Shown here in pieces: positions 9,193 to 20,149 of a DNA stretch of 46,990 nucleotides (positions are counted from its first letter, which is position 1; the number at the start of each line of letters is the position of its first letter). Source of the DNA: an uncultured Candidatus Saccharibacteria bacterium (GTDB lineage Bacteria; Patescibacteriota; Minisyncoccia; UBA6257; GWB1-50-10); the NCBI GenBank assembly GCA_964365955.1, contig CAYISA010000006.1, forward strand, positions 1-46,990. The letters run 5' to 3'. Under the pieces are notes generated by a model. That model saw nothing but the letters and a program-made list of their open reading frames with translations, did no database searches and was not told where the DNA came from. The translations under genes were made by a program, and so were the position numbers.

Positions 9193-9306
9193 TTAGCCTT
9201 GGCGTTGTTTGTGTTTCTTGTTTTCGCAGATGACATAAACGCGCCCTTTGCGCCGGACGGTTTTACATTTCAAACAGATTTTTTTTACGGATGCGCGTAC
9301 TTTCAT
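9193..9306 (-). CDS. rpmJ: 50S ribosomal protein L36 (hand-translated, below the ORF-track size cut-off)
   Basis: The reverse complement gives [37 protein letters not shown] (37 aa). It lies in the expected slot between infA and rpsM. Confidence 0.9.
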
Positions 9307-9559: not shown

Positions 9560-9588
9560 AGTATAAGAAAGTCGCTTCAAAAAGTCAA
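9560..9588 (-). promoter_or_regulatory. sigma70-type promoter for the infA-rpmJ-rpsM... operon
   Basis: The minus strand reads TTGACT (9588-9583), 17 nt, TATACT (9565-9560), about 35 nt upstream of the infA ATG. Confidence 0.55.
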
Positions 9589-9591
9589 CCA

Positions 9592-11325
9592 TTACTCCAA
9601 AACGACCGTAACTTTCGCGGGATCCGTGGGAATGCTGAATACCCAAAACGGATCAAGTGTTAGTTTCGCTTTTTCGAGACCTTTGATGGAAAGAACATAC
9701 CCTTTAAAAGCGTCGTTCGTCTTCCCTAGGAGCGCGGCCTTGATTCCTTCCTCGCTTACGTCGGGTTCAAACACAACGGTGCCCTTCATGCCCGTCGCGA
9801 GCGTGCCCTGTTCGAGATTCGGCTGACTATTGAGGTAAGAAAAATCAAAGGAACGCACGCGCAAATTATCATCGAGCTGTCCCCTTACCTTTTCCTTCGC
9901 TTTTTGAACAATAGCGTTTTTGAGCGTCGTTTCATCAAACACAAGATATTTTAACTCCCCCTCTGCGAAAATGGACATCTTAGTCGCGTCCTGCGCGTCG
10001 GGTTCCACATCTTCCGAAAGAATTTTGAAACTCGATGCCCCATCGATTAATTTTAATTGTTGCAAAAGAATCATCTGGCTTTGGAGCGCCACCTCAAGAT
10101 CTTTCTCGATCTTCACTTTTGCCGCGGCCGTGTCCGCCGCTGTCGCCACGGAACGCATCCCCACGAATCCTCCCTTCATGGATGATTTTGCTTCGGCATA
10201 AAAAGCGGCATATTTGGGGGTACCGTCAAAACCTGGGATGTGCCACCCCGCGCTTGCCTTCACATTGTACGTGTCCCCCGCCGCATCCGCGGTAACCGTT
10301 ACATCAATGGACGACGGAACGATTTTGCCGTTTTCAATCTTCGCTCCGGGAATCGTTGTTTTTACGTCCAGCCGAAAAAGGCGTCCTTCGGGAGAAAGAA
10401 AGCGGGTATTTTGGACGATGGCCTGCGGCGCGGAACTGTACGCGTTATAGACCGCCAATACTCCTTTCGCTTTTGTAGCTACATTTTCTTTTCCGCTCGC
10501 GGGGAATGTTTCCGTCAAATTTCCCCTTTTCACCATCAACTGTCCGGGAACCACCAGAGGGCTTCCAAGCTGCGGAGTGGATACCTTCGTGCTGATTTGC
10601 GCTGTTTCTTCAAATTCCACAGGAGTTTTTTTGAGCGTCACGGTGATTTCCGCCCGCGGTAAAACACGAAATCCCAAAAACCAGAAGAGTGCTACTAGGA
10701 CGACAATGCCTCCACCAATCACCGCCCACTTACGCCACGATCGGTGAGGACGCGTAAATTCTTCCGGCTCTTTTTTAGGGAAGGTGATCTCGCCTCCCAG
10801 CGCGGTTTGCAATTCGGGCGGGAACACGGGATAAATCGTCTTCCCGCTCTGCGGAGTTTCTTTCGATTTTTCCCAAAATGCGGGCGTCGGCATGCTCTCT
10901 TTTTCTTTTTTTCGCGGTGCAGGTTTTAGGGGAACGGTTTTTTCCGGCTTTATTTCTTCCGTCTCCACATTCGCTGCGGCTCTCTGTGGGACGCGTTTCG
11001 GCAAACCGGCACGGAATACGATATCCGATACGGACTTTTCTTTTTTCCGAAGCAAAGAAGAGTGTAGTATTTTTAACTCGGCAAGAGTGGCAAGTTCGAG
11101 CGCATGCTCGTCCGATGATTCAATCACGATTTCTTTCCCCGCTGTTTTGCTTTCCCGGCTCAAAACCTGGAAATTTTTGAGCGAAGAGCCCACCGCAGAA
11201 TTTTCCGGGAGCACAATGACGATGCGCGGCGCAAGCATGTGGATGACCTTATCAACCACCATTGCCACATCGTCTTTAATGTCAACAAAAATTTTCTTTT
11301 CTTGGGAAGAAGAAAGGGCTACCAT
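9592..11325 (-). CDS. hypothetical bitopic membrane protein (N-terminal cytoplasmic domain, Lys/Pro/Glu-rich linker, one TM helix, about 360-aa beta-rich outer domain)
   Basis: 577 aa. Single TM WAVIGGGIVVLVALFWFLGF near residue 200. The outer part loosely recalls baseplate-J/gp47-like repeats, but this cannot be confirmed by eye. Last gene of the 9592-16861 operon. Confidence 0.6.
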   Translation of the reverse strand: MVALSSSQEKKIFVDIKDDVAMVVDKVIHMLAPRIVIVLPENSAVGSSLKNFQVLSRESKTAGKEIVIESSDEHALELATLAELKILHSSLLRKKEKSVSDIVFRAGLPKRVPQRAAANVETEEIKPEKTVPLKPAPRKKEKESMPTPAFWEKSKETPQSGKTIYPVFPPELQTALGGEITFPKKEPEEFTRPHRSWRKWAVIGGGIVVLVALFWFLGFRVLPRAEITVTLKKTPVEFEETAQISTKVSTPQLGSPLVVPGQLMVKRGNLTETFPASGKENVATKAKGVLAVYNAYSSAPQAIVQNTRFLSPEGRLFRLDVKTTIPGAKIENGKIVPSSIDVTVTADAAGDTYNVKASAGWHIPGFDGTPKYAAFYAEAKSSMKGGFVGMRSVATAADTAAAKVKIEKDLEVALQSQMILLQQLKLIDGASSFKILSEDVEPDAQDATKMSIFAEGELKYLVFDETTLKNAIVQKAKEKVRGQLDDNLRVRSFDFSYLNSQPNLEQGTLATGMKGTVVFEPDVSEEGIKAALLGKTNDAFKGYVLSIKGLEKAKLTLDPFWVFSIPTDPAKVTVVLE

Positions 11326-11338
11326 GAGTTTTATTGTA

Positions 11339-12502
11339 TCATTTTGACGGAATGAGCCATTTCGCCCTCCGCTTCAATAATTGATTCAGAAATGCGTACT
11401 GAACGTAGGTGTGCGGATGAAGAAGCAGGGCAAGAAGCGTCTGGCTGAAAATCGGAGTAAATGATTTTATCTTTTTTGAAACCTCCACTCGAATCCCCTG
11501 TAATTTTAACTGCTCATAAAACCCCGCAATATGCGCGTGGGGCTCCATAAACCAGGATTCTAGAAGCGGTAAATCCACCCGAAAATGAAAATGCACAATG
11601 GGGCGGGAATGTTTTGCTTTCGATTGCAGGGGGGCGATGAGCTTTAAGAGCTTCCGAAACTCGTCCCGCGCGTGTTTTTCCACAAGCCGCCGGAATCGTT
11701 CAGAAAGCTTATCTTTTTTGTATTGCTTCAAAATCCATTCCGCCACTATTTCGTCGATCGCCAAATTCCCCATGAGCGACCGTGCGAGAGAAGATGTCCC
11801 CCATCCGTACTCCCCGACAAATACCCGTTCGTCCTCTTTGGAAATAAATACAGTGGTATTCCCCGATTCCACACAGACCACAAAATCGTTCGATCCGGCC
11901 ACCGCTCCCGTAAGGGAGCTCCCGTGTTCCACCACCACCAGTTCCTTTGTGCGTGCATGCAATTTTTCAAGGAGCGGTAACAGTCTCCGCGGAATAAACG
12001 TCCCTTTGAACCGGATGGTGAATTCTTTCCCCGAAAATCCCAGCGGATTAAAAACGCGGTTGCTCCCCAGCCGCACGTCGGCAATTTCGATATTCGCAAG
12101 CACCAGATCCAGTTCGTTTGCGCCCATTTTTTTCGCAACCCATCCGCGATAATGATTTAAAAATTCCCAAAGAGCGCGGAATAATAATCCGTCGAGTTCG
12201 CCTTCGTCGATCGCGCCTTCGGGGTTTTGGCGCTTCACGCGGACCTCCCCTTCCATGGTCGTGGCATGGCGCGAAGATGCGGCGATAACCAGGCGGTCAC
12301 TTTTCGGAATGCCGCCCCCTTTTCCAAGAGCCGAAAGATTGGGGAGTGCTTTTCGCGAAAGAAGCTCAACATACTTTTCTACGCGATTCACCTTCGCCTC
12401 CGTGATTTCCACTCCGTGATTGAGCTCTTCCACGACAACGGAACGCTCCTCCCCTTTCCTTGGAAACGCGTTTTTTACGATATCCCACAAACCTTTTTTC
12501 AC
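11339..12502 (-). CDS. divergent actin-fold (FtsA/PilM-like ASKHA) protein, hypothetical
   Basis: 387 aa. The segment ELVVVEHGSSLTGAVAGSNDFVVCVESGNTTVFISKEDERVFVGEYGWGTSSLARSL mirrors the adenosine/phosphate-2 region of FtsA/PilM. A canonical N-terminal DxGxx phosphate-1 motif is not visible. Confidence 0.35.
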   Translation of the reverse strand: MKKGLWDIVKNAFPRKGEERSVVVEELNHGVEITEAKVNRVEKYVELLSRKALPNLSALGKGGGIPKSDRLVIAASSRHATTMEGEVRVKRQNPEGAIDEGELDGLLFRALWEFLNHYRGWVAKKMGANELDLVLANIEIADVRLGSNRVFNPLGFSGKEFTIRFKGTFIPRRLLPLLEKLHARTKELVVVEHGSSLTGAVAGSNDFVVCVESGNTTVFISKEDERVFVGEYGWGTSSLARSLMGNLAIDEIVAEWILKQYKKDKLSERFRRLVEKHARDEFRKLLKLIAPLQSKAKHSRPIVHFHFRVDLPLLESWFMEPHAHIAGFYEQLKLQGIRVEVSKKIKSFTPIFSQTLLALLLHPHTYVQYAFLNQLLKRRAKWLIPSK

Positions 12503-12516
12503 TTATTCAAAGTATA

Positions 12517-13857
12517 TCACAGGGCGGGATTCGGAGTGCGCGCCAGGCCATATGTGACAGACGATGCGCGTCGGATCACATCGCTCTGTGATGCCGTGGG
12601 GGGCGGAAGCACTTTCAGTGTTTCGGCGGAAAACGGATCCTGCGCCTCTCCATCGATGATCATGCGGATGTAAAAATCTTGAACACCGAGATTCGTCATA
12701 TCTTTGATATCGAACACGGGTGCCATTTCGGAACGGAGCGCGGACGCATCTTCGCCCGTCACACGGAAAATAATAATGGTACCGACGTTCCCCAAAACGG
12801 ATACCCGAAATTCCGGCGTCAACTGTCCCAGATATTGGTGCGAAACGGTCAAGCAGATTCCGTATTTTCGCGCGTCCGAAAATAATTGTTTGAGCGTATC
12901 GGTAGCAAGCGCGTGAAAATCATCGATATAAATATAAAAATCTCGGAGCGCGTCACGTGACCCTCGCGCCATTCCCGCTTGCTTGATTTTAGTGATGAAG
13001 AGAGAACCCAAAAAGCTTGCGTTTTCTTCACCGATCTTATCTTTTGCCAGATTAATAAAAACGATTTTATGGTCACGGATAAACGCATCAAACGCAATGG
13101 TGTTATCTTCTACGCTTAAAATGCGGTTTAACATGGGGTCGGAAAAAATTTGGCTTAACTTCGTGACAATCGGCACCACCGCATCTGTACGAAGCTTGTC
13201 CACTCCTTGGGCAAAATCTTGCGTCCAAAATTTTTTAACCAAATCATCGCGAATGGATTCAACTACCTTCGCGCGATACTCGGGATCGGTCAATATCGAA
13301 AGGAGCCCGCGCACGGTAGCGTGTGGATAATCCAGAAGGGCAAGGATTGCAAAACGCAACACGTGTTCTGTCTGCGACCCCCAATGCACCCCCAATAATT
13401 TCTTCATGGAATCCAGAATCCCCTGCGCGAACGACTGCCGAGAGGTTAGGTCGACATCGCGGAACGGATTGAATGCGACGTAGTTTTCTTCTGCGGAAAA
13501 ATCCATCAATACGACATCCTTAACTCGATTTTCCGGAACGAAATCCAAAAGAGAGTAGATAACGTCCCCTTGCAAATCGATCAGACATGTTCCGTATCCG
13601 TACGCGATATCTTGGCGCAATAATAACTCAAGCAATTTTGATTTCCCCACGCCACCTTTCCCAATCATGTAAATATGCCGCCGCCGATCCACACGTTTGA
13701 TGCCAAAAATAAACCGCTTTTCTTCGAGTGCGGCAACATAATTCGTGCGCCCCATAAACGACGCGTTCGCCGGATCCCCTCGTCCGAAGATCGGCAAATC
13801 TGCGGGCGGAGGCGCGGATTTTACTTTCTGAATCTGTATATTTTTGTCTTTGCGCAT
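12517..13857 (-). CDS. VirD4/TraD/TraG-like (type IV coupling protein family) P-loop ATPase, soluble form
   Basis: 446 aa. Walker A is HIYMIGKGGVGKS and Walker B is FYIYIDDFH, followed by ARKYGICLTVSHQYLGQL and GTIIIFRV, colinear with T4CP/TrwB-type ATPases. No N-terminal TM helices. Confidence 0.6.
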   Translation of the reverse strand: MRKDKNIQIQKVKSAPPPADLPIFGRGDPANASFMGRTNYVAALEEKRFIFGIKRVDRRRHIYMIGKGGVGKSKLLELLLRQDIAYGYGTCLIDLQGDVIYSLLDFVPENRVKDVVLMDFSAEENYVAFNPFRDVDLTSRQSFAQGILDSMKKLLGVHWGSQTEHVLRFAILALLDYPHATVRGLLSILTDPEYRAKVVESIRDDLVKKFWTQDFAQGVDKLRTDAVVPIVTKLSQIFSDPMLNRILSVEDNTIAFDAFIRDHKIVFINLAKDKIGEENASFLGSLFITKIKQAGMARGSRDALRDFYIYIDDFHALATDTLKQLFSDARKYGICLTVSHQYLGQLTPEFRVSVLGNVGTIIIFRVTGEDASALRSEMAPVFDIKDMTNLGVQDFYIRMIIDGEAQDPFSAETLKVLPPPTASQSDVIRRASSVTYGLARTPNPAL

Positions 13858-13866
13858 AAATCCGTG

Positions 13867-14379
13867 CTACAACACTCCGATCTCCGAGAGTAATCCTTGA
13901 TACGCGCGCAGTACTTCTTCCGCATCCGCACGTGTAATCTCATAATCCGGCGCGTGCACCAATTCGTTACGGATGCGATGGGCGCGCCACACGCGTTCCA
14001 GATGGGTAAAATTCCGGTCGGTGAGGGATTCCAAACGGTCGGCCATGTGCTCGCCACTTAATCCCATTTTTTTCAAAATATCGTCCACGAATTTATCGGC
14101 GCTTATGATCGCGGTGACATATGAATGCGGCGGCTGGGAATCCGCGTTCGCCAAAATCGTTTTCCATTTTACTTTAAGCTGCGGATCAAAAACAGCCGCA
14201 GGAAGCGGGGGGGGTGTGGGCTCGGGAAGGCGCACGCGCAATTCGCGAATATGCACGATGACGTAAATAATGCCCGCAAAAAGGACGAGGTCCAAAAAAA
14301 TGAAAATAAAACGGGCGGTGACAAACAACGCGTGCCACGGACCAACGGCGAACGAATCTTGAAGAGAAACGAGGGGCAT
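13867..14379 (-). CDS. hypothetical membrane-anchored protein
   Basis: 170 aa. One N-terminal TM region (ALFVTARFIFIFLDLVLFAGIIYVIV), a Pro-rich hinge, and a helical C-terminal domain (...RVWRAHRIRNELVHAP...). Confidence 0.55.
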   Translation of the reverse strand: MPLVSLQDSFAVGPWHALFVTARFIFIFLDLVLFAGIIYVIVHIRELRVRLPEPTPPPLPAAVFDPQLKVKWKTILANADSQPPHSYVTAIISADKFVDDILKKMGLSGEHMADRLESLTDRNFTHLERVWRAHRIRNELVHAPDYEITRADAEEVLRAYQGLLSEIGVL

Positions 14380-14387
14380 ATGATAAT

Positions 14388-15785
14388 TTATTTAAACCGC
14401 TCGATTTCCCCTTCTTCGCCGAAAATCGCCAACCCTGCGGGCGGTCCCGCTTTGCGACTTTCGACTCTCTTGAGATGCGGAGCGGTAAGCACCACCGCCG
14501 TCGGCGGATGGAAAAGCGTCGCCAATCCTTCCACATTCAGCGTAAAATCACGCGTGGCAAAATTCCAATTGAGCAGATAGGAAGTGAAGATGCGCCCGAT
14601 CGGAGAATCCGGCGGGGTTTCCCGCATAATATAATTCCACAGTAACCGCTGTTTTCGATACTCCGTTCTCTGCGAAGTCATCACGTGCGGCCATGTCCAT
14701 AAGTCGGCACGTGTCCCCGCACGACCATTAGATTTAAACGAATTCAGCGAAAGTTCCGTATACTGGTTGAAAGCTGTCATCACGGATTTTCCGATGTCTT
14801 TCGAAAACACGGCCTTGGGCGACAGATAGACGGAACGGATAATCGTGCGAAATGCGGGTTTCGAAAGATTTCCTTCGATCGCCTCGATCACATCGGACTG
14901 CCCCGGCGAGCGCGCCACCGCTACTTTTCTTTTTTCTTCTCCGGAGCCCACATTGATGGTTTCCGGTTCTTTTAGTTTTGCCAAAAATTTTGTCCATACT
15001 TTGAACCAATCTTTTGTAGCAGGCGCGATTAGAAATTGGATTCCGACCGTTTCACCCGGGCGTACTTTCGCAAACGATTCCAAAAATACCGACAAAGGAT
15101 CGACATTCTTTTCTTCCACATCGGATTCAAAGGACGTGTAGGTTTTAATGGGATACGCATCTTCGCGCGCCAACACCATTTCGGCGCCCCAAATATCCTG
15201 CTCCTTTTCGTACATCTCGCGCACGGAATGCGGAAACATTTCGGTATAATCTTTCACTTCCGCGATCTCCACGTCTTTGTAATACGAAAAAAACGCCGCC
15301 TCGATAATGTTGCGTTGGGATTTTTGGCAGCGGACATAGAAATGAATTTCACCGCCGAAACTTACGATCTCAAGAGCGTTCCATGTGGTGGTAACTCCTT
15401 CGATATATTTTTCGGGAAAATTCCCCGGCGCCGATCCGAAGGTGTGAAGCGTGAGAAAAACCTGTTCCATCGCCTGCGCGCTTTTCAAAATTTCGCGCGG
15501 CATTTGGAGTTCTAAAAGGATATATTCGCGGCTGCGCATATATAATTCCTGCCGCCAGAAAATCCACAAATGCTCGAAGAGTGGCAGTAAAATTACAAAA
15601 AGCCACAACCACCATGTAGCGTAGAAATATTCCAACATCCGCGCTATAAATGCGGATGTATTCAAAACGGGAAGCGCGACAAACAGTCCTGCAAACCCAA
15701 AAAGGATCAAAAACAACATCACCTCCTCTTTCTGGAGAAGCTCCTGAAAGATAATCCAGATTTCCGAGATTAAATGGGAGAGCAT
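14388..15785 (-). CDS. hypothetical polytopic-N-terminus membrane protein with a large soluble domain
   Basis: 465 aa. Two or three TM helices in the first ~80 residues and a ~380-aa soluble domain. No family recognised by eye. Confidence 0.55.
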   Translation of the reverse strand: MLSHLISEIWIIFQELLQKEEVMLFLILFGFAGLFVALPVLNTSAFIARMLEYFYATWWLWLFVILLPLFEHLWIFWRQELYMRSREYILLELQMPREILKSAQAMEQVFLTLHTFGSAPGNFPEKYIEGVTTTWNALEIVSFGGEIHFYVRCQKSQRNIIEAAFFSYYKDVEIAEVKDYTEMFPHSVREMYEKEQDIWGAEMVLAREDAYPIKTYTSFESDVEEKNVDPLSVFLESFAKVRPGETVGIQFLIAPATKDWFKVWTKFLAKLKEPETINVGSGEEKRKVAVARSPGQSDVIEAIEGNLSKPAFRTIIRSVYLSPKAVFSKDIGKSVMTAFNQYTELSLNSFKSNGRAGTRADLWTWPHVMTSQRTEYRKQRLLWNYIMRETPPDSPIGRIFTSYLLNWNFATRDFTLNVEGLATLFHPPTAVVLTAPHLKRVESRKAGPPAGLAIFGEEGEIERFK

Positions 15786-15793
15786 CCCTCCTA

Positions 15794-16822
15794 TTATGCC
15801 TCTTTCACGTGGTAGCGTCCATCATCCAGACGTTTGAAAAAACGCCGGTTCTGGAGGCCTAACAAAATCGTGTTCTGTTTCAAAATTCTCTGCTTGTTTA
15901 CGTGGTCCACCACTTGCGTTGCGTGCAAGGGTCCCTGTTTTTTCAAAAGCCGAGCAATCACCTCACGCACGGTACCGGGCTCGAATCCGTGTTCGCGAAG
16001 CGCGTACACGCCGCGTCCCACCAACACAAAACGCCCATCTTTAATGAGTTCATTATGCACCGTCTGCACATGCGCAGAATTTTTGTCGATGCCGAGTTTC
16101 GCGATATATTTCGCCACATCTTCAAAGTGAAGCGGCTTAGCGTGTTTCTTGAGCGCCAAATAGGCTTTGTCGCGGACGGTTTTCGGTTCAATTTCCGCCC
16201 ATGCGCGAAGTCCAACGTCGCCGAACACGTTTGTTCCGACCTGCTTCGAGATCGAAAGAAAGTGGCTGGATGTAAAATCTTTGCAATGTGCCAGATACAG
16301 TTTTCCGTCCAAGAACTCCTGCTTGTCCGCGCTCTTAAACGATTGAAGTGTCTGTTTTAAAAACTCGAAAAACTTTTTCTTGGATTGTTCCGTTGTGTAC
16401 CAAAACGCATTCGTGTCATCGGTCTCTTTGTTGAAAAGAGGTTTTCCGGCCGCCACAAACATCAGGTGGAGTTTTTGCTCCGCATTTTTCAGCGTGTTCG
16501 CATTCGGAAACGAGTGCTTCACTTCGGCGATCAGCGCGTCATCGCGACGCACGCCGCCTACGCTATCCAGGTAGTTTGCAACTGCCTCCAGAAAATCTCC
16601 CGCGCCGCTTTCTACGCGCCCGCGAAGTTTTTTGAGCATCTGCTCTTCAATCTGACGCACACGCTCGCGCGTGATACCAAGCTCGTCCCCAATCGCTTGG
16701 AGCGAAACGCGATGTCCGATCTTCAAGCCGAACCGGCCCGCAATTACTCTGCGCTGTTTTGGAGTGAATCCATCAAACAACGCCTCGACGAACTGATCTA
16801 AGTTTTTCAGGTTATGTTTCAT
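15794..16822 (-). CDS. sigma70 region-4 HTH fused to two HARE-HTH-like winged-helix modules
   Basis: 342 aa. FTPKQRRVIAGRFGL...SLQAIGDELGITRERVRQIEEQMLKKLR is a textbook sigma region 4. The C-terminus has two repeats of the pattern ...PLHF.DV...I......V...L..DGRFV.VGRGVYAL. No sigma region 2 is present. Confidence 0.6.
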   Translation of the reverse strand: MKHNLKNLDQFVEALFDGFTPKQRRVIAGRFGLKIGHRVSLQAIGDELGITRERVRQIEEQMLKKLRGRVESGAGDFLEAVANYLDSVGGVRRDDALIAEVKHSFPNANTLKNAEQKLHLMFVAAGKPLFNKETDDTNAFWYTTEQSKKKFFEFLKQTLQSFKSADKQEFLDGKLYLAHCKDFTSSHFLSISKQVGTNVFGDVGLRAWAEIEPKTVRDKAYLALKKHAKPLHFEDVAKYIAKLGIDKNSAHVQTVHNELIKDGRFVLVGRGVYALREHGFEPGTVREVIARLLKKQGPLHATQVVDHVNKQRILKQNTILLGLQNRRFFKRLDDGRYHVKEA

Positions 16823-16831
16823 AATGGTTAT

Positions 16832-16861
16832 AGACTAGCACGTTTGTTATTTTACTGTCAA
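16832..16861 (-). promoter_or_regulatory. sigma70-type promoter for the six-gene operon; near-leaderless
   Basis: The minus strand reads TTGACA (16861-16856), 18 nt, TAGTCT (16837-16832). Only 9 nt separate the -10 box from the ATG at 16822, and there is no Shine-Dalgarno sequence. Confidence 0.45.
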
Positions 16862-16923: not shown

Positions 16924-17817
16924 TTATTTTCCTTGCTTTTCTCGACCCCAAAGATACAAGAGCGGGCTTGCGACAAAAATCGAAGAGTACGTACCAAAAA
17001 TGGTTCCCACAAGAATGGTAAGCACAAAATAGAAAAGCGGAGCGGGGCCAAAGAAGAGCAATGCGATGAGCACCAGAATAAGCGTGAGCGAGGTATTCAC
17101 CGAACGTGTAAATGTTTCGTTTACACTCTCGTTAAACACGGTCACGAGCGGCAACCGCTTCTGCCCACGTAGCAAATGTTCGCGGATCCGGTCAAACACC
17201 ACGATCGTGTCATGCACGGAAAATCCCATCACCACCAAAAGCGCCACAATAAAGTTCGTGTCGATCTCTATCCCATGCGTCCACCCAAGAAATGCCAACA
17301 GTCCTGTCGGAATGGCAACGTCATGGAACAGAGTGACGAGCGTCACAATGCCATACTTCCACGACTGGATCGGCTGAGACACTTTTCGAAACGCCCACGC
17401 AATATAGAGCGAGATCATCACGAGCACGCCACCGATCGCCCACAACGATTTGCGCTGCAACTCGCTTCCCACTGTAGGACCGATATTCGAATAATTTTTT
17501 TCATCCACCGTTCCCAGCGTCTGAAGCGCCGCGAGATATGCTTTCCGAGCGCCTTCCTCAAGATGCGGGAGGCGGAGTAAGAATGTTCCGTCATCCATTT
17601 TTTTCACAAAGACATCCATTCCTTGCACGGGTCTTAAAACATTTTTAAGCGCTTCCTCCATGACATTACCGCCCAGCCTGACCTGCCACTGTGTGCCGCC
17701 GGTAAGGTCGATACCGGGACGAAGACCAAATAGAATCACTAACACGATGCTTGCCAAAACCAAAGCCCCCGAAAATCCAAGAAAATAATTTCTCTTTCCA
17801 ATGACATCAAATTGCAT
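16924..17817 (-). CDS. secF: protein translocase subunit SecF
   Basis: 297 aa. The SecF topology and motifs (GIDLTGG..., C-terminal six-TM bundle) immediately follow secD. Confidence 0.88.
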   Translation of the reverse strand: MQFDVIGKRNYFLGFSGALVLASIVLVILFGLRPGIDLTGGTQWQVRLGGNVMEEALKNVLRPVQGMDVFVKKMDDGTFLLRLPHLEEGARKAYLAALQTLGTVDEKNYSNIGPTVGSELQRKSLWAIGGVLVMISLYIAWAFRKVSQPIQSWKYGIVTLVTLFHDVAIPTGLLAFLGWTHGIEIDTNFIVALLVVMGFSVHDTIVVFDRIREHLLRGQKRLPLVTVFNESVNETFTRSVNTSLTLILVLIALLFFGPAPLFYFVLTILVGTIFGTYSSIFVASPLLYLWGREKQGK

Positions 17818-17821
17818 AAAT

Positions 17822-19102
17822 TTATTTTTGTGATTGAACCGTTGTCGTCCCTTTGTCTTTTAGAAATAACCGGAGCATGGTGCGCGTAATCGTAATCGCG
17901 GAAAACATACTCATCACTACTCCCAAAAACAGCGAGAGGGCAAACCCTTTCACAAAACTGGAGGTGAAGTAATACAGCACCGCGGACGTGATCATGGTGC
18001 TGACGTTTGAATCCCGGATAGACGGCCACGCACGCTTAAATCCTTCCTCGATCGCGGCCACCCGGCTTAACCCCTTCTTTAACTCCTCTTTCGTGCGCTC
18101 AAATACAAGGATATTCGCGTCCACTGCCATGCCAATCGACAAAATGAACCCTGCGATGCCCGCAAGCGTAAGTGTTACCGGGACCATCTTAAATACCGCA
18201 AGCGTAAGTGCCACATACATAATAAGGGCAACTGCGGCAAAAATTCCCATCAGATGATAAAACGCGATCATAAAAAGCATAACAATCGCCGTACCGATTA
18301 AACCTGCGAACATCGCTTCATTCAAAGACGTGTTGCCGAAATCCGCCGAAACCGTTTGCTGATTGACCAGCTTGATGGGCGCCGGAAGTGCGCCGGCGTT
18401 AAACCGTTCCTTGATGCTTTTGACTTCATCGAATGTAAAATTTCCAGAAATCTGAGCGTGCCCTCCGCTGATTTTTGATTGAACCGTAGGACAGTCTGCG
18501 GTCACACTCCGAATTTCGTTATCCAAAAAAATACAGAGCCGTTTTCCGATGTTGCGTTCCGTAACGGTCTCAAAAATTTTTGCGCCGTCGTCCGTAAATT
18601 CCAGAAGCACCATCGGCGTTCCACCCACATCCCCCTGCCCAATCTGCGCGGACTTCACATAACGCCCCGTCAGTTCCGTAGGAACGAACCGCACCGTACT
18701 AGTCCCTTCTTCCACTAGTTCGCGGAAGTCCAGAAGCGGAGTTTGCCCGATCTGTCCTACCGCTTTCGAAATATCGTGAATGCCCGCAAGCTCCACCACC
18801 AACCGATTCGTTCCCGCGACTGTTTCGGTGTACACCCGCGGCTCACTCACGCCGAATAAGTTGACGCGGCGCTCGATCACGTCCCGCAAACCCTTCACTA
18901 CAAAATCTTTGTCCCCGCTGTCCACGCCGGTTAAATCAATTTCATAGGTGAGCACGCTTCCTCCCGCTACGTCGAGCCCTAAACTCCACGGACGCGCGTC
19001 GCTTATTTTTTCCCACGCAGGCGGATAATCAAACACGGCCGCGAACACAGAAAGCGAAACAACCACAACAAACAATAAAACTATCTTCCCACGTTTTGGC
19101 AT
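17822..19102 (-). CDS. secD: protein translocase subunit SecD
   Basis: Colinear with SecD (GLDVAGG..., periplasmic domain, C-terminal TM bundle). The ATG at 19102 (MPKRGKIVLLF...) is preferred over the track's TTG at 19138, which overlaps the divergent gene. Confidence 0.85.
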   Translation of the reverse strand: MPKRGKIVLLFVVVVSLSVFAAVFDYPPAWEKISDARPWSLGLDVAGGSVLTYEIDLTGVDSGDKDFVVKGLRDVIERRVNLFGVSEPRVYTETVAGTNRLVVELAGIHDISKAVGQIGQTPLLDFRELVEEGTSTVRFVPTELTGRYVKSAQIGQGDVGGTPMVLLEFTDDGAKIFETVTERNIGKRLCIFLDNEIRSVTADCPTVQSKISGGHAQISGNFTFDEVKSIKERFNAGALPAPIKLVNQQTVSADFGNTSLNEAMFAGLIGTAIVMLFMIAFYHLMGIFAAVALIMYVALTLAVFKMVPVTLTLAGIAGFILSIGMAVDANILVFERTKEELKKGLSRVAAIEEGFKRAWPSIRDSNVSTMITSAVLYYFTSSFVKGFALSLFLGVVMSMFSAITITRTMLRLFLKDKGTTTVQSQK

Positions 19103-19126
19103 AGCATCTAGTGTATAATAAGAATA

Positions 19127-20149
19127 ATGAAACAACAACTCACACTCCTAGTATTGGGGGAAGTATCACGTGCGGTGCGCGGTGAAATCTTTCAGCGCCA
19201 ACCCTTAAAAAGCGCCCCTCATTACTTCGAAATTTCCGTCCCTAACCAAGTAGTCATCAGCGAGGAAAAAATTTTTGCGGATGGCGCAGAAGCCATTATG
19301 CAACTAAAAGGATACCCGCCGGATATTCTTGTACTTCAAACCACCATTGAGGTCCCCGATATTTTCGATCAGAAAAAAGTTTCGGAACTGGAAGACCATA
19401 TTCTTGAGGAATCCTATAAAATCTTAAAAGAACGCGGCGGCCGCAAAGAAGCGAGTGAAACCTACTCTATCTTTTGCGTCACCGGCTACTCCGGAGATCC
19501 AGATCAGTTTGCTGGACACGCGGACGTCATCGCTGCGCTTCTAAAATCCGAAAAGGCGCGGTTGGACCCCGAAGAGGTCGCTTATACCATGTCTGCTCAA
19601 ATTAAATACGGCAACAACGACGCGGCTGTATTGGATTGGGACGGCGCTTTCTTATTCGACCCAGAAGGCGACATTGAGGCTTCGATTGAGCTTCTGACGC
19701 TCGCTAATCTCCAGCTTCTTCGATATCGCATTTTAGATCGTCATCTGGACGACCGTCTGGAACAAATGAAACATCTTGTGAAAACTCCGCCGAAACGTTT
19801 CTCTTTGCGTCGCGATAAAGAAGTGGAAAATGGCCTTCGTGGCATTATAAAATCCCGTATGGAATCTATCCAACAGTTTCAAGCGATCGAACGCGACATT
19901 AAACTGATTGGCGACTGGTACTTCGCGCGTCTTTACGACATGACATCTAAAAAATTAAAACTGAACGAATGGAGAAATTCCATCCGCGAAAAACTCGACT
20001 CCATTGAAGGCATCTATAACATGGTGGCGGAAAATCTTACCATCTCAACCAAAGACCGCGCCGAGTGGATTCAAATTATCGCGTTTTTTATTCTGCAGAT
20101 TGGCTGGCTCGTACTGATTGTGCTTGAATTTTTCTATTTTACGAAATAA
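19127..20149 (+). CDS. RMD1/DUF155-like protein with a C-terminal TM helix
   Basis: 340 aa. The tail ...IGDWYFARLYDMTSKKLKLNEWRNSIREKLDSIE...AEWIQIIAFFILQIGWLVLIVLEFF fits the DUF155 end pattern. TATAAT lies at 19114-19119, only 7 nt before the ATG. Confidence 0.45.
   Translation: MKQQLTLLVLGEVSRAVRGEIFQRQPLKSAPHYFEISVPNQVVISEEKIFADGAEAIMQLKGYPPDILVLQTTIEVPDIFDQKKVSELEDHILEESYKILKERGGRKEASETYSIFCVTGYSGDPDQFAGHADVIAALLKSEKARLDPEEVAYTMSAQIKYGNNDAAVLDWDGAFLFDPEGDIEASIELLTLANLQLLRYRILDRHLDDRLEQMKHLVKTPPKRFSLRRDKEVENGLRGIIKSRMESIQQFQAIERDIKLIGDWYFARLYDMTSKKLKLNEWRNSIREKLDSIEGIYNMVAENLTISTKDRAEWIQIIAFFILQIGWLVLIVLEFFYFTK

Follow-up and report, generated by a model that had tools for sequence, protein, structure and literature searches.

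A candidate operon around a coupling-protein-type ATPase beside secDF, and an adjoining actin-fold gene pair, in a Patescibacterial genome

Two described systems come closest to the locus reported here. Type IV coupling proteins (T4CPs), such as TrwB of R388, VirD4 and TraD, have a P-loop nucleotide-binding domain (NBD) with an inserted helical region, and an N-terminal transmembrane (TM) domain of their own. VirB4 (TrwK of R388), a component of type IV secretion systems (T4SSs), joins a non-ATPase N-terminal alpha/beta domain and a TrwB-like ATPase in one polypeptide and is tethered to the membrane via a small TM element, VirB3. Homologues of the coupling protein are widespread in the Patescibacteria: 5,713 VirD4-like proteins were counted in 2,918 of 3,035 genomes (96%), only 148 of them near virB4, with VirB4 itself in 2,417 genomes, and their exaptation, in the authors' words, "cannot be ruled out" (Quinonero-Coronel et al., 2025; PMC12102498). 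The subject of this paper is one such orphan ATPase, here called g4, and the genes that surround it in a stretch of 46,990 nucleotides (the window; contig CAYISA010000006.1 of assembly GCA_964365955.1) from an uncultured Candidatus Saccharibacteria bacterium. The DNA comes from Hainich groundwater (Hain_H43), and the window forms one end of a contig of 113 kb.

An earlier note on this DNA had read six open reading frames (ORFs), with gaps of 8–14 nt, as one operon under a single promoter, and had proposed that they encode an uncharacterised envelope-spanning translocation or attachment machine. All six ORFs are present on the minus strand and are named g1 to g6 in their 5′ to 3′ order, from position 16822 to position 9592; the gaps from g1 to g6 measure 8, 8, 9, 14 and 13 nt. 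Comparison with related loci nevertheless divides the array, and we consider there to be an even chance that it consists of two independent units that abut in this lineage. Unit A (g1–g4, 12517–16861) would be a split, membrane-tethered motor, and unit B (g5–g6, 9592–12516) a separate pair.

Synteny and promoters of the array

Gene order was compared in two sets of loci. The set anchored on g4 comprised 80 genome loci, all with a protein 54–59% identical to g4, in which gene content was assigned by BLAST and clustering; the set anchored on g5 comprised 21 metagenome loci and two look-ups. The denominators used below for synteny (71, 64, 56 or 80) are the loci with enough flanking sequence. The taxa sampled are mostly Parcubacteria, and the nearest named relatives are Patescibacteria of the Parcubacteria type (Jorgensenbacteria, Liptonbacteria and Nealsonbacteria).

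Upstream of g4 the order is well kept. The gene g2 was found there in 58 of 71 loci, g2 together with g3 in 55 of 71 and g1 together with g2 in 49 of 64, and secF, g1 and g2 stand in this order in 39 of 56. Beyond secD the flanking genes differ from locus to locus, so that secDF and g1–g4 behave as a conserved block. Even at distant loci, in a genome of the candidate phyla radiation (CPR) and in a Moranbacteria genome (L092 and L093 in our numbering of loci), the order (secDF)–g1–DUF8128–ATPase is seen, DUF8128 being the family of g2, with a longer paralogue as the ATPase and with no g3. On this evidence unit A appears to be widely conserved in Parcubacteria-type Patescibacteria and vertically inherited.

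Downstream of g4 the order is not kept. The pair g5–g6 follows g4 in 2 of 80 loci, and in most genomes CutA and tandem arrays of a Cys-rich family of ~590 residues are found there instead. Viewed from g5, the pair itself is constant: g6 follows g5 in every locus with enough sequence, usually with infA-rpsM-rpsK-rpsD-rpoA after it. The gene directly before g5 is g4 in just two of the 21 loci, L107, which has the same six-gene order as the window, and L110. Elsewhere g5 is preceded by Cys-rich arrays or pepA (five loci) or by dnaG-rpoD-alaS-sua5 (at least eight loci), and in two metagenome-assembled genomes (MAGs) g1–g4 and g5–g6 lie on different contigs (L007 and L085; L047 and L087). Synteny in related genomes, which the earlier note had suggested as a check, thus holds strongly for g1–g4 and fails for g5–g6, and the idea of six genes inherited together as one machine is not supported.

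A sigma-70-type promoter lies in front of g1 (16832..16861, minus strand). It consists of TTGACA (16861–16856), an 18-nt spacer ending in TGC, which supplies an extended –10 TG at 16840–16839, and TAGTCT (16837–16832). The –10 box fits at just 3 of 6 positions and the site was missed by a generic promoter scanner. Its conservation, nevertheless, upholds the earlier reading of it as a dedicated promoter: 30 of 41 relatives have the motif TTGAC-N17–20-TAnnnT in the 90 nt that precede g1, often with the TGC of an extended –10. No such motif was seen upstream of g2 (0 of 57), g3 (0 of 47) or g4 (0 of 78) in related loci. Because the motif is this frequent before g1 and absent before the other three, there is good evidence that g1–g4 form an operon led by g1. 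In a scan of the coding strand from secD to rpsM, this site and that of infA were the only ones to combine a –35 box matching at 5 or more of 6 positions with a usable –10. The –10 box of the g1 promoter ends 9 nt before the ATG, and the g1–g4 transcript would therefore be nearly leaderless.

A –10-like box of a different kind precedes g5. The sequence TATACT (12511..12516, minus strand), a candidate internal promoter, is found right after the TGA stop codon of g4, which provides a TG, and is separated by 8 nt from the GTG start of g5. In 15 of 20 related loci a TATA[AC]T box lies 8–12 nt before the start codon of g5, which is GTG or ATG and mostly the former, as against 2 of 21 for g6 and 2 of 13 for rpsM; upstream of g5 in the related loci no –35 box was detected. 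This suggests that the g5 mRNA is leaderless and GTG-initiated, and g5–g6 probably have a near-leaderless start of their own, beside any read-through from g4. The conserved box, together with the rarity of g4–g5 co-linearity, speaks against the single transcription unit that had been claimed. Judged by promoter and co-linearity, g1–g4 form an operon to which g5–g6 do not belong. The array is bounded downstream by the infA promoter (9560..9588, minus strand; TTGACT-17-TATACT), of which an equivalent was found in 12 of 14 related loci.

The statement that no hairpin or T-run occurs inside the array proved correct in so far as there is no convincing internal terminator. Terminator-like hairpins do occur, but in no excess (11, where 13.4 are expected in shuffled sequence). 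One of those flagged by the terminator scan, GGAGGG-ATG-CTCTCC (15777–15791, minus strand), encloses the Shine–Dalgarno sequence and start codon of g2 and is more likely a translation-initiation structure than a terminator, if it is functional at all. Among 16 gene starts checked, from secD to rpsI, a clear AGGAG-type Shine–Dalgarno sequence was seen at g2 and secD only. None accompanies the TATA[AC]T box of g5, either at 12503–12519 in the window or in the upstream regions of L085–L114.

Larger gaps separate secF from g1 (101 nt) and g6 from infA (66 nt). The close spacing within the array is no marker of a special unit on its own, because secD–secF and the ribosomal genes from rpsM to rpsI are likewise 2–14 nt apart; nearly all genes of the window are on the minus strand.

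The ATPase g4 and its partners g1–g3

The product of g4 (446 residues; 12517..13857, minus strand) is a soluble P-loop ATPase, as the earlier note had recognised, and within the FtsK-HerA superfamily it belongs to the TrwB/VirD4/TraD branch. Pfam TrwB_AAD_bind matches residues 58–378 above its cut-off (E 9e-11), TraG-D_C is matched as well, and both Walker A (GKGGVGKS, 66–73) and Walker B (YIYIDDF, 306–312) are intact. Across many Parcubacteria lineages the protein is 55–60% identical, with G66, K67, G69, G71, K72, D312, H340 and Q341 invariant, and more than 3,000 homologues were detected, against 29 for g5. By profile comparison (hhalign) it is nearer to TrwB (E 2e-6) than to TrwK (E 5e-4), and TrwB is also its best sequence match in the PDB. 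The VirB4 model TIGR00929 and the TrbE models gave E values of 0.02 or above, and Pfam CagE_TrbE_VirB gave no match.

With the T4CPs, then, g4 shares the P-loop NBD with its Walker motifs and inserted helical region. It differs from them in having no TM helix or other hydrophobic segment, so that an N-terminal TM domain of its own is absent, and no linkage to relaxase or VirB genes: no gene for a relaxase or for mating-pair formation (MPF) turned up near g4, either in the window or in the genes inspected at the 80 related loci. Unlike T4CPs, it is also chromosomal, apparently vertically inherited and unusually conserved, and it has dedicated partners in g1, g2 and g3, which T4CPs lack. In place of the missing TM domain, g2 may act in trans as the membrane anchor.

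A longer paralogue of the ATPase, g4′, lies near g4 in 26 of the 80 loci (L005:8921-10756, L050:5941-8142, L092:9525-11231). It has 550–770 residues, is 36–39% identical to g4 and has no TM helix; the ATPase forms its N-terminal part, and a treble-clef zinc finger (zf_Tbcl_2) lies at ~460–495. In several genomes it is found a few genes from ComEC, and in distant lineages it stands as the ATPase immediately after DUF8128. In a Staskawiczbacteria genome a protein with a Fic/DOC domain (E 7e-19; L050:4912-5898) is encoded between the DUF8128 gene and g4′. A pair of g4 and g4′ would fit the figure of about two VirD4-like copies per genome.

The product of g2 (465 residues; 14388..15785, minus strand) carries PF26449/DUF8128 in precomputed tables, and nothing was found on DUF8128 in the literature; in a profile search the family numbered 2,791 representatives of clusters at 50% identity. 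A TM hairpin (22–40 and 58–76) is followed by an alpha/beta domain of ~385 residues, predicted to be cytoplasmic, in agreement with the membrane protein with a polytopic N-terminus and a soluble domain of ~380 residues that had been described from the sequence. An AlphaFold2 model built from 40 homologues (pLDDT 84.8, pTM 0.78) was searched against the PDB with Foldseek. The top eight matches were all chains of TrwK/VirB4 of R388 (E 2.9e-5 to 1.4e-3, probability 0.99–1.0), at low TM-scores of 0.27–0.34; the part of VirB4 that is matched is not reported by Foldseek. Searches of the PDB by sequence or profile gave nothing meaningful with g2, g3, g5 or g6.

Joint action of g2 and g4 is indicated most strongly by large phages of Bacillus, in which counterparts of the two are fused. 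The profile phrog_5156, of 824 positions, matches g2 at positions 81–211 (E 2.4e-9) and g4 at positions 396–774 (E 5e-42). The same Bacillus phage proteins were reached twice, by tblastn with g4 and by Foldseek with the g2 model, the latter matching gp156 of phage G (825 residues, E 1e-14), the protein of phage JL (913 residues, E 4e-13) and that of phage Slash. In gp151 of phage Shanette, hhalign places g2 on residues 79–207 (E 3e-4), and the Walker A motif follows at residue 421. Such a fusion, as Rosetta-stone evidence, indicates that g2 and g4 probably act as one unit.

The PHROG 5156 proteins (phage G gp156, Shanette and JL gp151) thus resemble the pair in that one polypeptide carries both parts, a g2-like domain at the N-terminus and an ATPase like g4. 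They differ in being soluble, without N-terminal TM helices, and in being followed by a Replic_Relax protein rather than accompanied by a sigma4/HARE-HTH protein; they are likewise uncharacterised. The Replic_Relax gene (PD-(D/E)XK plus helix-turn-helix, HTH) after the fusion is gp150 in Shanette (L088:5469-6314, E 1.5e-18), and the corresponding match is weak in Microcystis phage Mwe-JY31 (L089:5410-6309). An hhalign comparison of the g2 profile with the Microcystis phage protein was negative, as was that of g1 with the phage Replic_Relax protein. In phage G a second protein, gp155 (549 residues), which has the g2-like part only, matches the g2 model beside the fused gp156.

The likeness to VirB4 with VirB3 lies in the combination: a non-ATPase N-terminal alpha/beta domain, for which the g2 model finds eight TrwK chains as its best fold matches, a TrwB-like ATPase, and a small TM element as the tether to the membrane. 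Unlike in VirB4, the two halves are separate genes, so that neither the single polypeptide nor the sequence models of VirB4 apply; g2 has no sequence similarity to VirB4, g4 is nearer in sequence to the T4CPs, and the rest of a T4SS is absent. It is proposed that g2 serves as a membrane anchor and as the equivalent of an N-terminal domain for the g4 motor.

The large domains of g2 and g3 are placed in the cytoplasm because there is no signal peptide and basic residues follow the TM helices, and for g2 also because phages fuse a g2-like domain to a cytoplasmic ATPase. With these domains and g4 all predicted to be cytoplasmic, and with no channel-forming or surface part in g1–g4, the envelope-spanning machine of the earlier note is not supported. 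Unit A would look, instead, like a cytoplasm-facing split motor of VirB4/T4CP type to which no channel, pilin, relaxase or surface part is linked.

The product of g1 (342 residues; 15794..16822, minus strand) has a region 4.2 HTH (~5–70), a conserved middle part, a HARE-HTH domain (215–277) and a winged-helix-like C-terminus, with no TM helix. The Pfam matches above threshold are Sigma70_r4 (E 3e-13) and a single HARE-HTH (E 2e-8). The second HARE-HTH that had been counted in it is represented by weak winged-helix matches only; the rest of that description stands. Its region 4.2 is of the primary-sigma type, and its profile finds region 4 of RpoD, SigA and RpoS in the PDB (E 3e-18). No match to sigma region 2 or 3 was obtained with Pfam or in profile searches, and as region 4.2 is the only one present, g1 is not a sigma factor but a carrier of sigma region 4. 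By its domains it is a putative DNA- or RNA polymerase (RNAP)-binding protein.

The product of g3 (170 residues; 13867..14379, minus strand) was correctly described as a small anchored helical protein: one TM helix (~24–46) precedes a predicted cytoplasmic helical domain with the motif AHRxRNxLVH. The RNxLVH part is kept in 20 of 23 aligned orthologues. HEPN_Swt1 matches 8 of the 23 (best E 0.0019), Hypoth_Ymh two and HEPN_RiboL-PSP one, all below the Pfam thresholds. The R-x4-H signature in RNxLVH and the repeated weak matches point, weakly, to a HEPN-like C-terminal domain of the Swt1/Ymh type, which would make g3 a putative RNase. It differs from that family in its membrane anchor, its sub-threshold matches and the replacement of the His in a few orthologues.

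The pair g5–g6 and the surroundings of the array

For unit B the closest described proteins are FtsA and PilM. The product of g5 (387 residues; 11339..12502, minus strand) has an actin fold of FtsA/PilM type and belongs to a module separate from g1–g4. It has no sequence-family match in Pfam, NCBIfam or PDB sequence searches, and its model (AlphaFold2; pLDDT 89.7, pTM 0.87) matches FtsA (E 4.7e-15, TM-score 0.54) and PilM (E 2.6e-12, TM-score ~0.5) in Foldseek over its whole length. The actin fold that had been read from the sequence is thereby confirmed. At the places where the DxG phosphate loops are expected from secondary structure g5 has EELNHG and VEHGSS, with Glu for Asp and without the glycine-rich loops, which is consistent with the degenerate active site of the earlier note. 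The conserved C-terminal helix (LNQLLKRRAKWLIP; residues 367–383) is basic and amphipathic-looking, with N373, L376, R378, R379, W382 and L383 invariant. By analogy with the membrane-targeting helix of FtsA, we infer that it may target g5 to the membrane. In contrast to FtsA, g5 lacks intact-looking nucleotide loops as well as a sequence-family match, and no ftsZ or ftsQ adjoins it.

The product of g6 (577 residues; 9592..11325, minus strand) is bitopic. It has a conserved cytoplasmic N-domain of ~100 residues, a variable linker rich in Pro, Lys and Glu, a TM helix at 201–219 and an external domain of ~355 residues, as expected from the large outward domain described earlier. The external domain contains a beta-barrel segment of GlxA type, which scores 23.6 bits here, with the cut-off at 27, and 28.8 bits in the orthologue at L085. 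Of the array proteins g2 has two TM helices, g3 and g6 have one each and g1, g4 and g5 have none; g6 is the sole one with a sizeable extracytoplasmic domain.

The order of g5 and its bitopic partner g6 recalls that of PilM and PilN. The pair differs from them, however, in that pilN and pilO neighbours are missing, g6, of 577 residues, is followed by infA, and no pilus genes occur in the window; g6 is also a far bigger protein than PilN, with a cytoplasmic N-domain that is folded. From its constant position g6 appears to be an obligate partner of g5, and unit B would be a lineage-restricted scaffold pair tied to the infA–rpsM operon rather than to ftsZ or pilus genes. The scaffold g5 is probably not an ATPase, and unit B probably has a role in division or envelope organisation.

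Downstream of g6 come infA, rpmJ and rpsM, so that the array does lie immediately 5′ of infA, as reported before. The gene rpmJ (ribosomal protein L36, 37 residues; 9193–9306, minus strand) occupies what had seemed a 122-nt gap between infA and rpsM and falls under the default ORF length cut-off. Upstream of g1 lie secD–secF (16924..19138, minus strand), outside the operon as judged by its promoter and the 101-nt gap. In the distant CPR genome SecD, upstream of g1–DUF8128–ATPase, is fused to a rotamase domain of PpiC type (691 residues; L092:3360-5435).

No VirB4, VirB6, VirB8–10, relaxase, secretin or PilB/PilT was found among the called genes, which cover ~2500–44000 of the window, and the earlier conclusion that the array is not a standard T4SS, conjugation module or type IV pilus is upheld. 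An origin from a mobile element was considered and rejected, given the uniform GC content and skew of the window, the absence of integrase and relaxase from the Pfam tables for ~2500–44000, and the distance of ~29 kb to the sole tRNA gene. In Rfam the whole window gave this tRNA-Asn only, and no riboswitch or leader.

The Cys-rich arrays do not occur in the window. They consist of 2–6 tandem paralogues of ~550–620 residues, directly after g4 in most Parcubacteria loci (L006:11461-20000, L056:2682-9476, L094:56-8800) and also directly upstream of g5 in several. The proteins have zinc-ribbon-like CxxC...CPxC motifs at both termini and a conserved YGEFFP, with no Pfam match, and a sigma-70-type promoter was found for 1 of 180 genes. 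A hidden Markov model of their F0 family gave no match to the long g4 paralogues, and the zinc fingers of the two are therefore not shared.

Explanations for units A and B

The following arrangement would account for unit A. A two-helix membrane anchor and a cytoplasmic platform resembling the N-terminal domain of VirB4 would be provided by g2, its TM helices playing the role of VirB3 or of the membrane domain of a T4CP. The P-loop motor g4, of T4CP type and presumably hexameric, would dock on this platform, and g3 would add a membrane-anchored HEPN-like domain. As the first product made from the operon's own TTGACA promoter, g1 may regulate its own synthesis at that –35 box, since region 4.2 binds –35 sequences and the promoter has the consensus TTGACA there; alternatively it may target the motor to nucleic acid or RNA polymerase. 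The whole would be a self-contained translocase or remodeller at the inner membrane face. That it most likely acts on nucleic acid is hinted at by the Replic_Relax neighbour in phages, by a DNA- or RNAP-binding g1 alongside DUF8128 and by the HEPN-like g3. Unit A would function as a member of the T4CP/VirB4 superfamily, yet it has neither the TM domain and gene linkage of a T4CP nor the single polypeptide and sequence match of a VirB4.

Several points weigh against this account and against a clean division of the array. The binding of g2, g3 and g4 to one another is a deduction. The likeness of g2 to VirB4 is at the level of the fold only, at a TM-score of 0.33, and an hhalign comparison of its profile with TrwK/VirB4 was negative. 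The HEPN assignment of g3 is below the Pfam thresholds, and g3 is missing from distant lineages (loci L092, L093, L050 and L082). The position next to secDF could equally hint at protein export. As to the division, g4 directly abuts g5 in the window, in L107 and in L110, with no terminator between them, so that read-through into g5–g6 is likely in this genome. In many lineages, moreover, the two units share a neighbourhood with only Cys-rich arrays between them, and a loose functional link is therefore possible.

An explanation that needs no new system is that g4 is the T4CP of a Patescibacterial T4SS encoded elsewhere, typically near dnaA, with g2 in place of its N-terminal membrane domain. 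TrwB, VirD4 and TraD are the closest relatives of g4, g2 resembles a T4SS component in its fold, genes for T4CPs frequently lie apart from virB4, and a T4SS is present in most Patescibacteria (PMC12102498). It is nevertheless considered unlikely, since T4CP homologues occur in ~500 more genomes than VirB4, at about two per genome (PMC12102498), and the genes inspected at the related loci included neither a relaxase nor a VirB gene. A DNA segregation pump like FtsK, split into an anchor (g2), a motor (g4) and a DNA-recognition protein (g1, cf. FtsK gamma), would suit the membership of g4 in the FtsK-HerA superfamily, the housekeeping-like conservation and fixed chromosomal position, the obligatorily linked HTH protein and the pairing of the phage relatives with a DNA-processing Replic_Relax protein. 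Apart from the P-loop, nothing in the unit resembles the motor or the gamma domain of FtsK, and FtsK itself is mentioned in papers on Saccharibacteria, so that this reading is improbable; the literature on FtsK in Patescibacteria was uninformative for the Parcubacteria.

The six-part machine with which the earlier note had explained the array can claim the co-directional, tightly spaced genes, the one full –35/–10 promoter upstream, the lack of a convincing internal terminator in the window, the identical order in L107 and the abutting g4 and g5 in L110. Synteny has already largely refuted it, and little credence is left to it: g5–g6 are not downstream of g4 in 78 of 80 relatives and lie behind dnaG-rpoD-alaS-sua5 elsewhere, the two units are on separate contigs within the same MAGs, g5 has a conserved –10 box of its own, g2–g4 face the cytoplasm, and the few homologues of g5 stand against the thousands of g4. 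Anti-phage defence, with the HTH protein as sensor or regulator and the HEPN protein as effector beside the P-loop ATPase, was rejected on grounds of distribution and is hardly credible. The fixed site next to secDF, the near-universal vertical conservation at 55–60% identity and the absence of an island signature are not those of a defence locus, and the PADLOC matches (g4 to mad8 at E 3e-10 and, weakly, to HerA; g1 to the sigma-like MzaA) span generic ATPase and sigma domains only. This holds in spite of the HEPN-like g3 and the Fic protein inserted in the L050 version.

The split, membrane-tethered motor thus remains the reading preferred for unit A. A 2026 preprint describes a cultivated Patescibacterium that takes up host RNA by a route called unresolved there, and a role of unit A in nucleic-acid handling is therefore worth testing. 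As a speculation with little probability, unit A might be a T4SS-derived translocase (g2 and g4) with a HEPN RNase (g3) and an adaptor (g1) that imports or processes host RNA or DNA. Literature searches for HARE-HTH with CPR and for TrwB_AAD_bind with CPR gave no description of an operon of g1, DUF8128 and HEPN genes, and a preprint on the novel CPR "Pam" pilus proved unrelated. In keeping with the earlier note, the core proteins are uncharacterised: DUF8128 is without literature, and g3, g5 and g6 are without a family above threshold.

A large part of bacterial diversity falls within the Patescibacteria, whose exchange of macromolecules with their hosts is poorly understood. Their orphan T4CP homologues now gain a testable context: an operon under its own promoter that encodes a dedicated sigma-region-4/HARE-HTH protein, a DUF8128 platform resembling VirB4 and, often, a HEPN-like membrane protein, fixed beside secDF and with fused counterparts in large Bacillus phages. 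A structural hypothesis can now be assigned to Pfam DUF8128. With the six-gene picture corrected, experiments can be directed at g1–g4.

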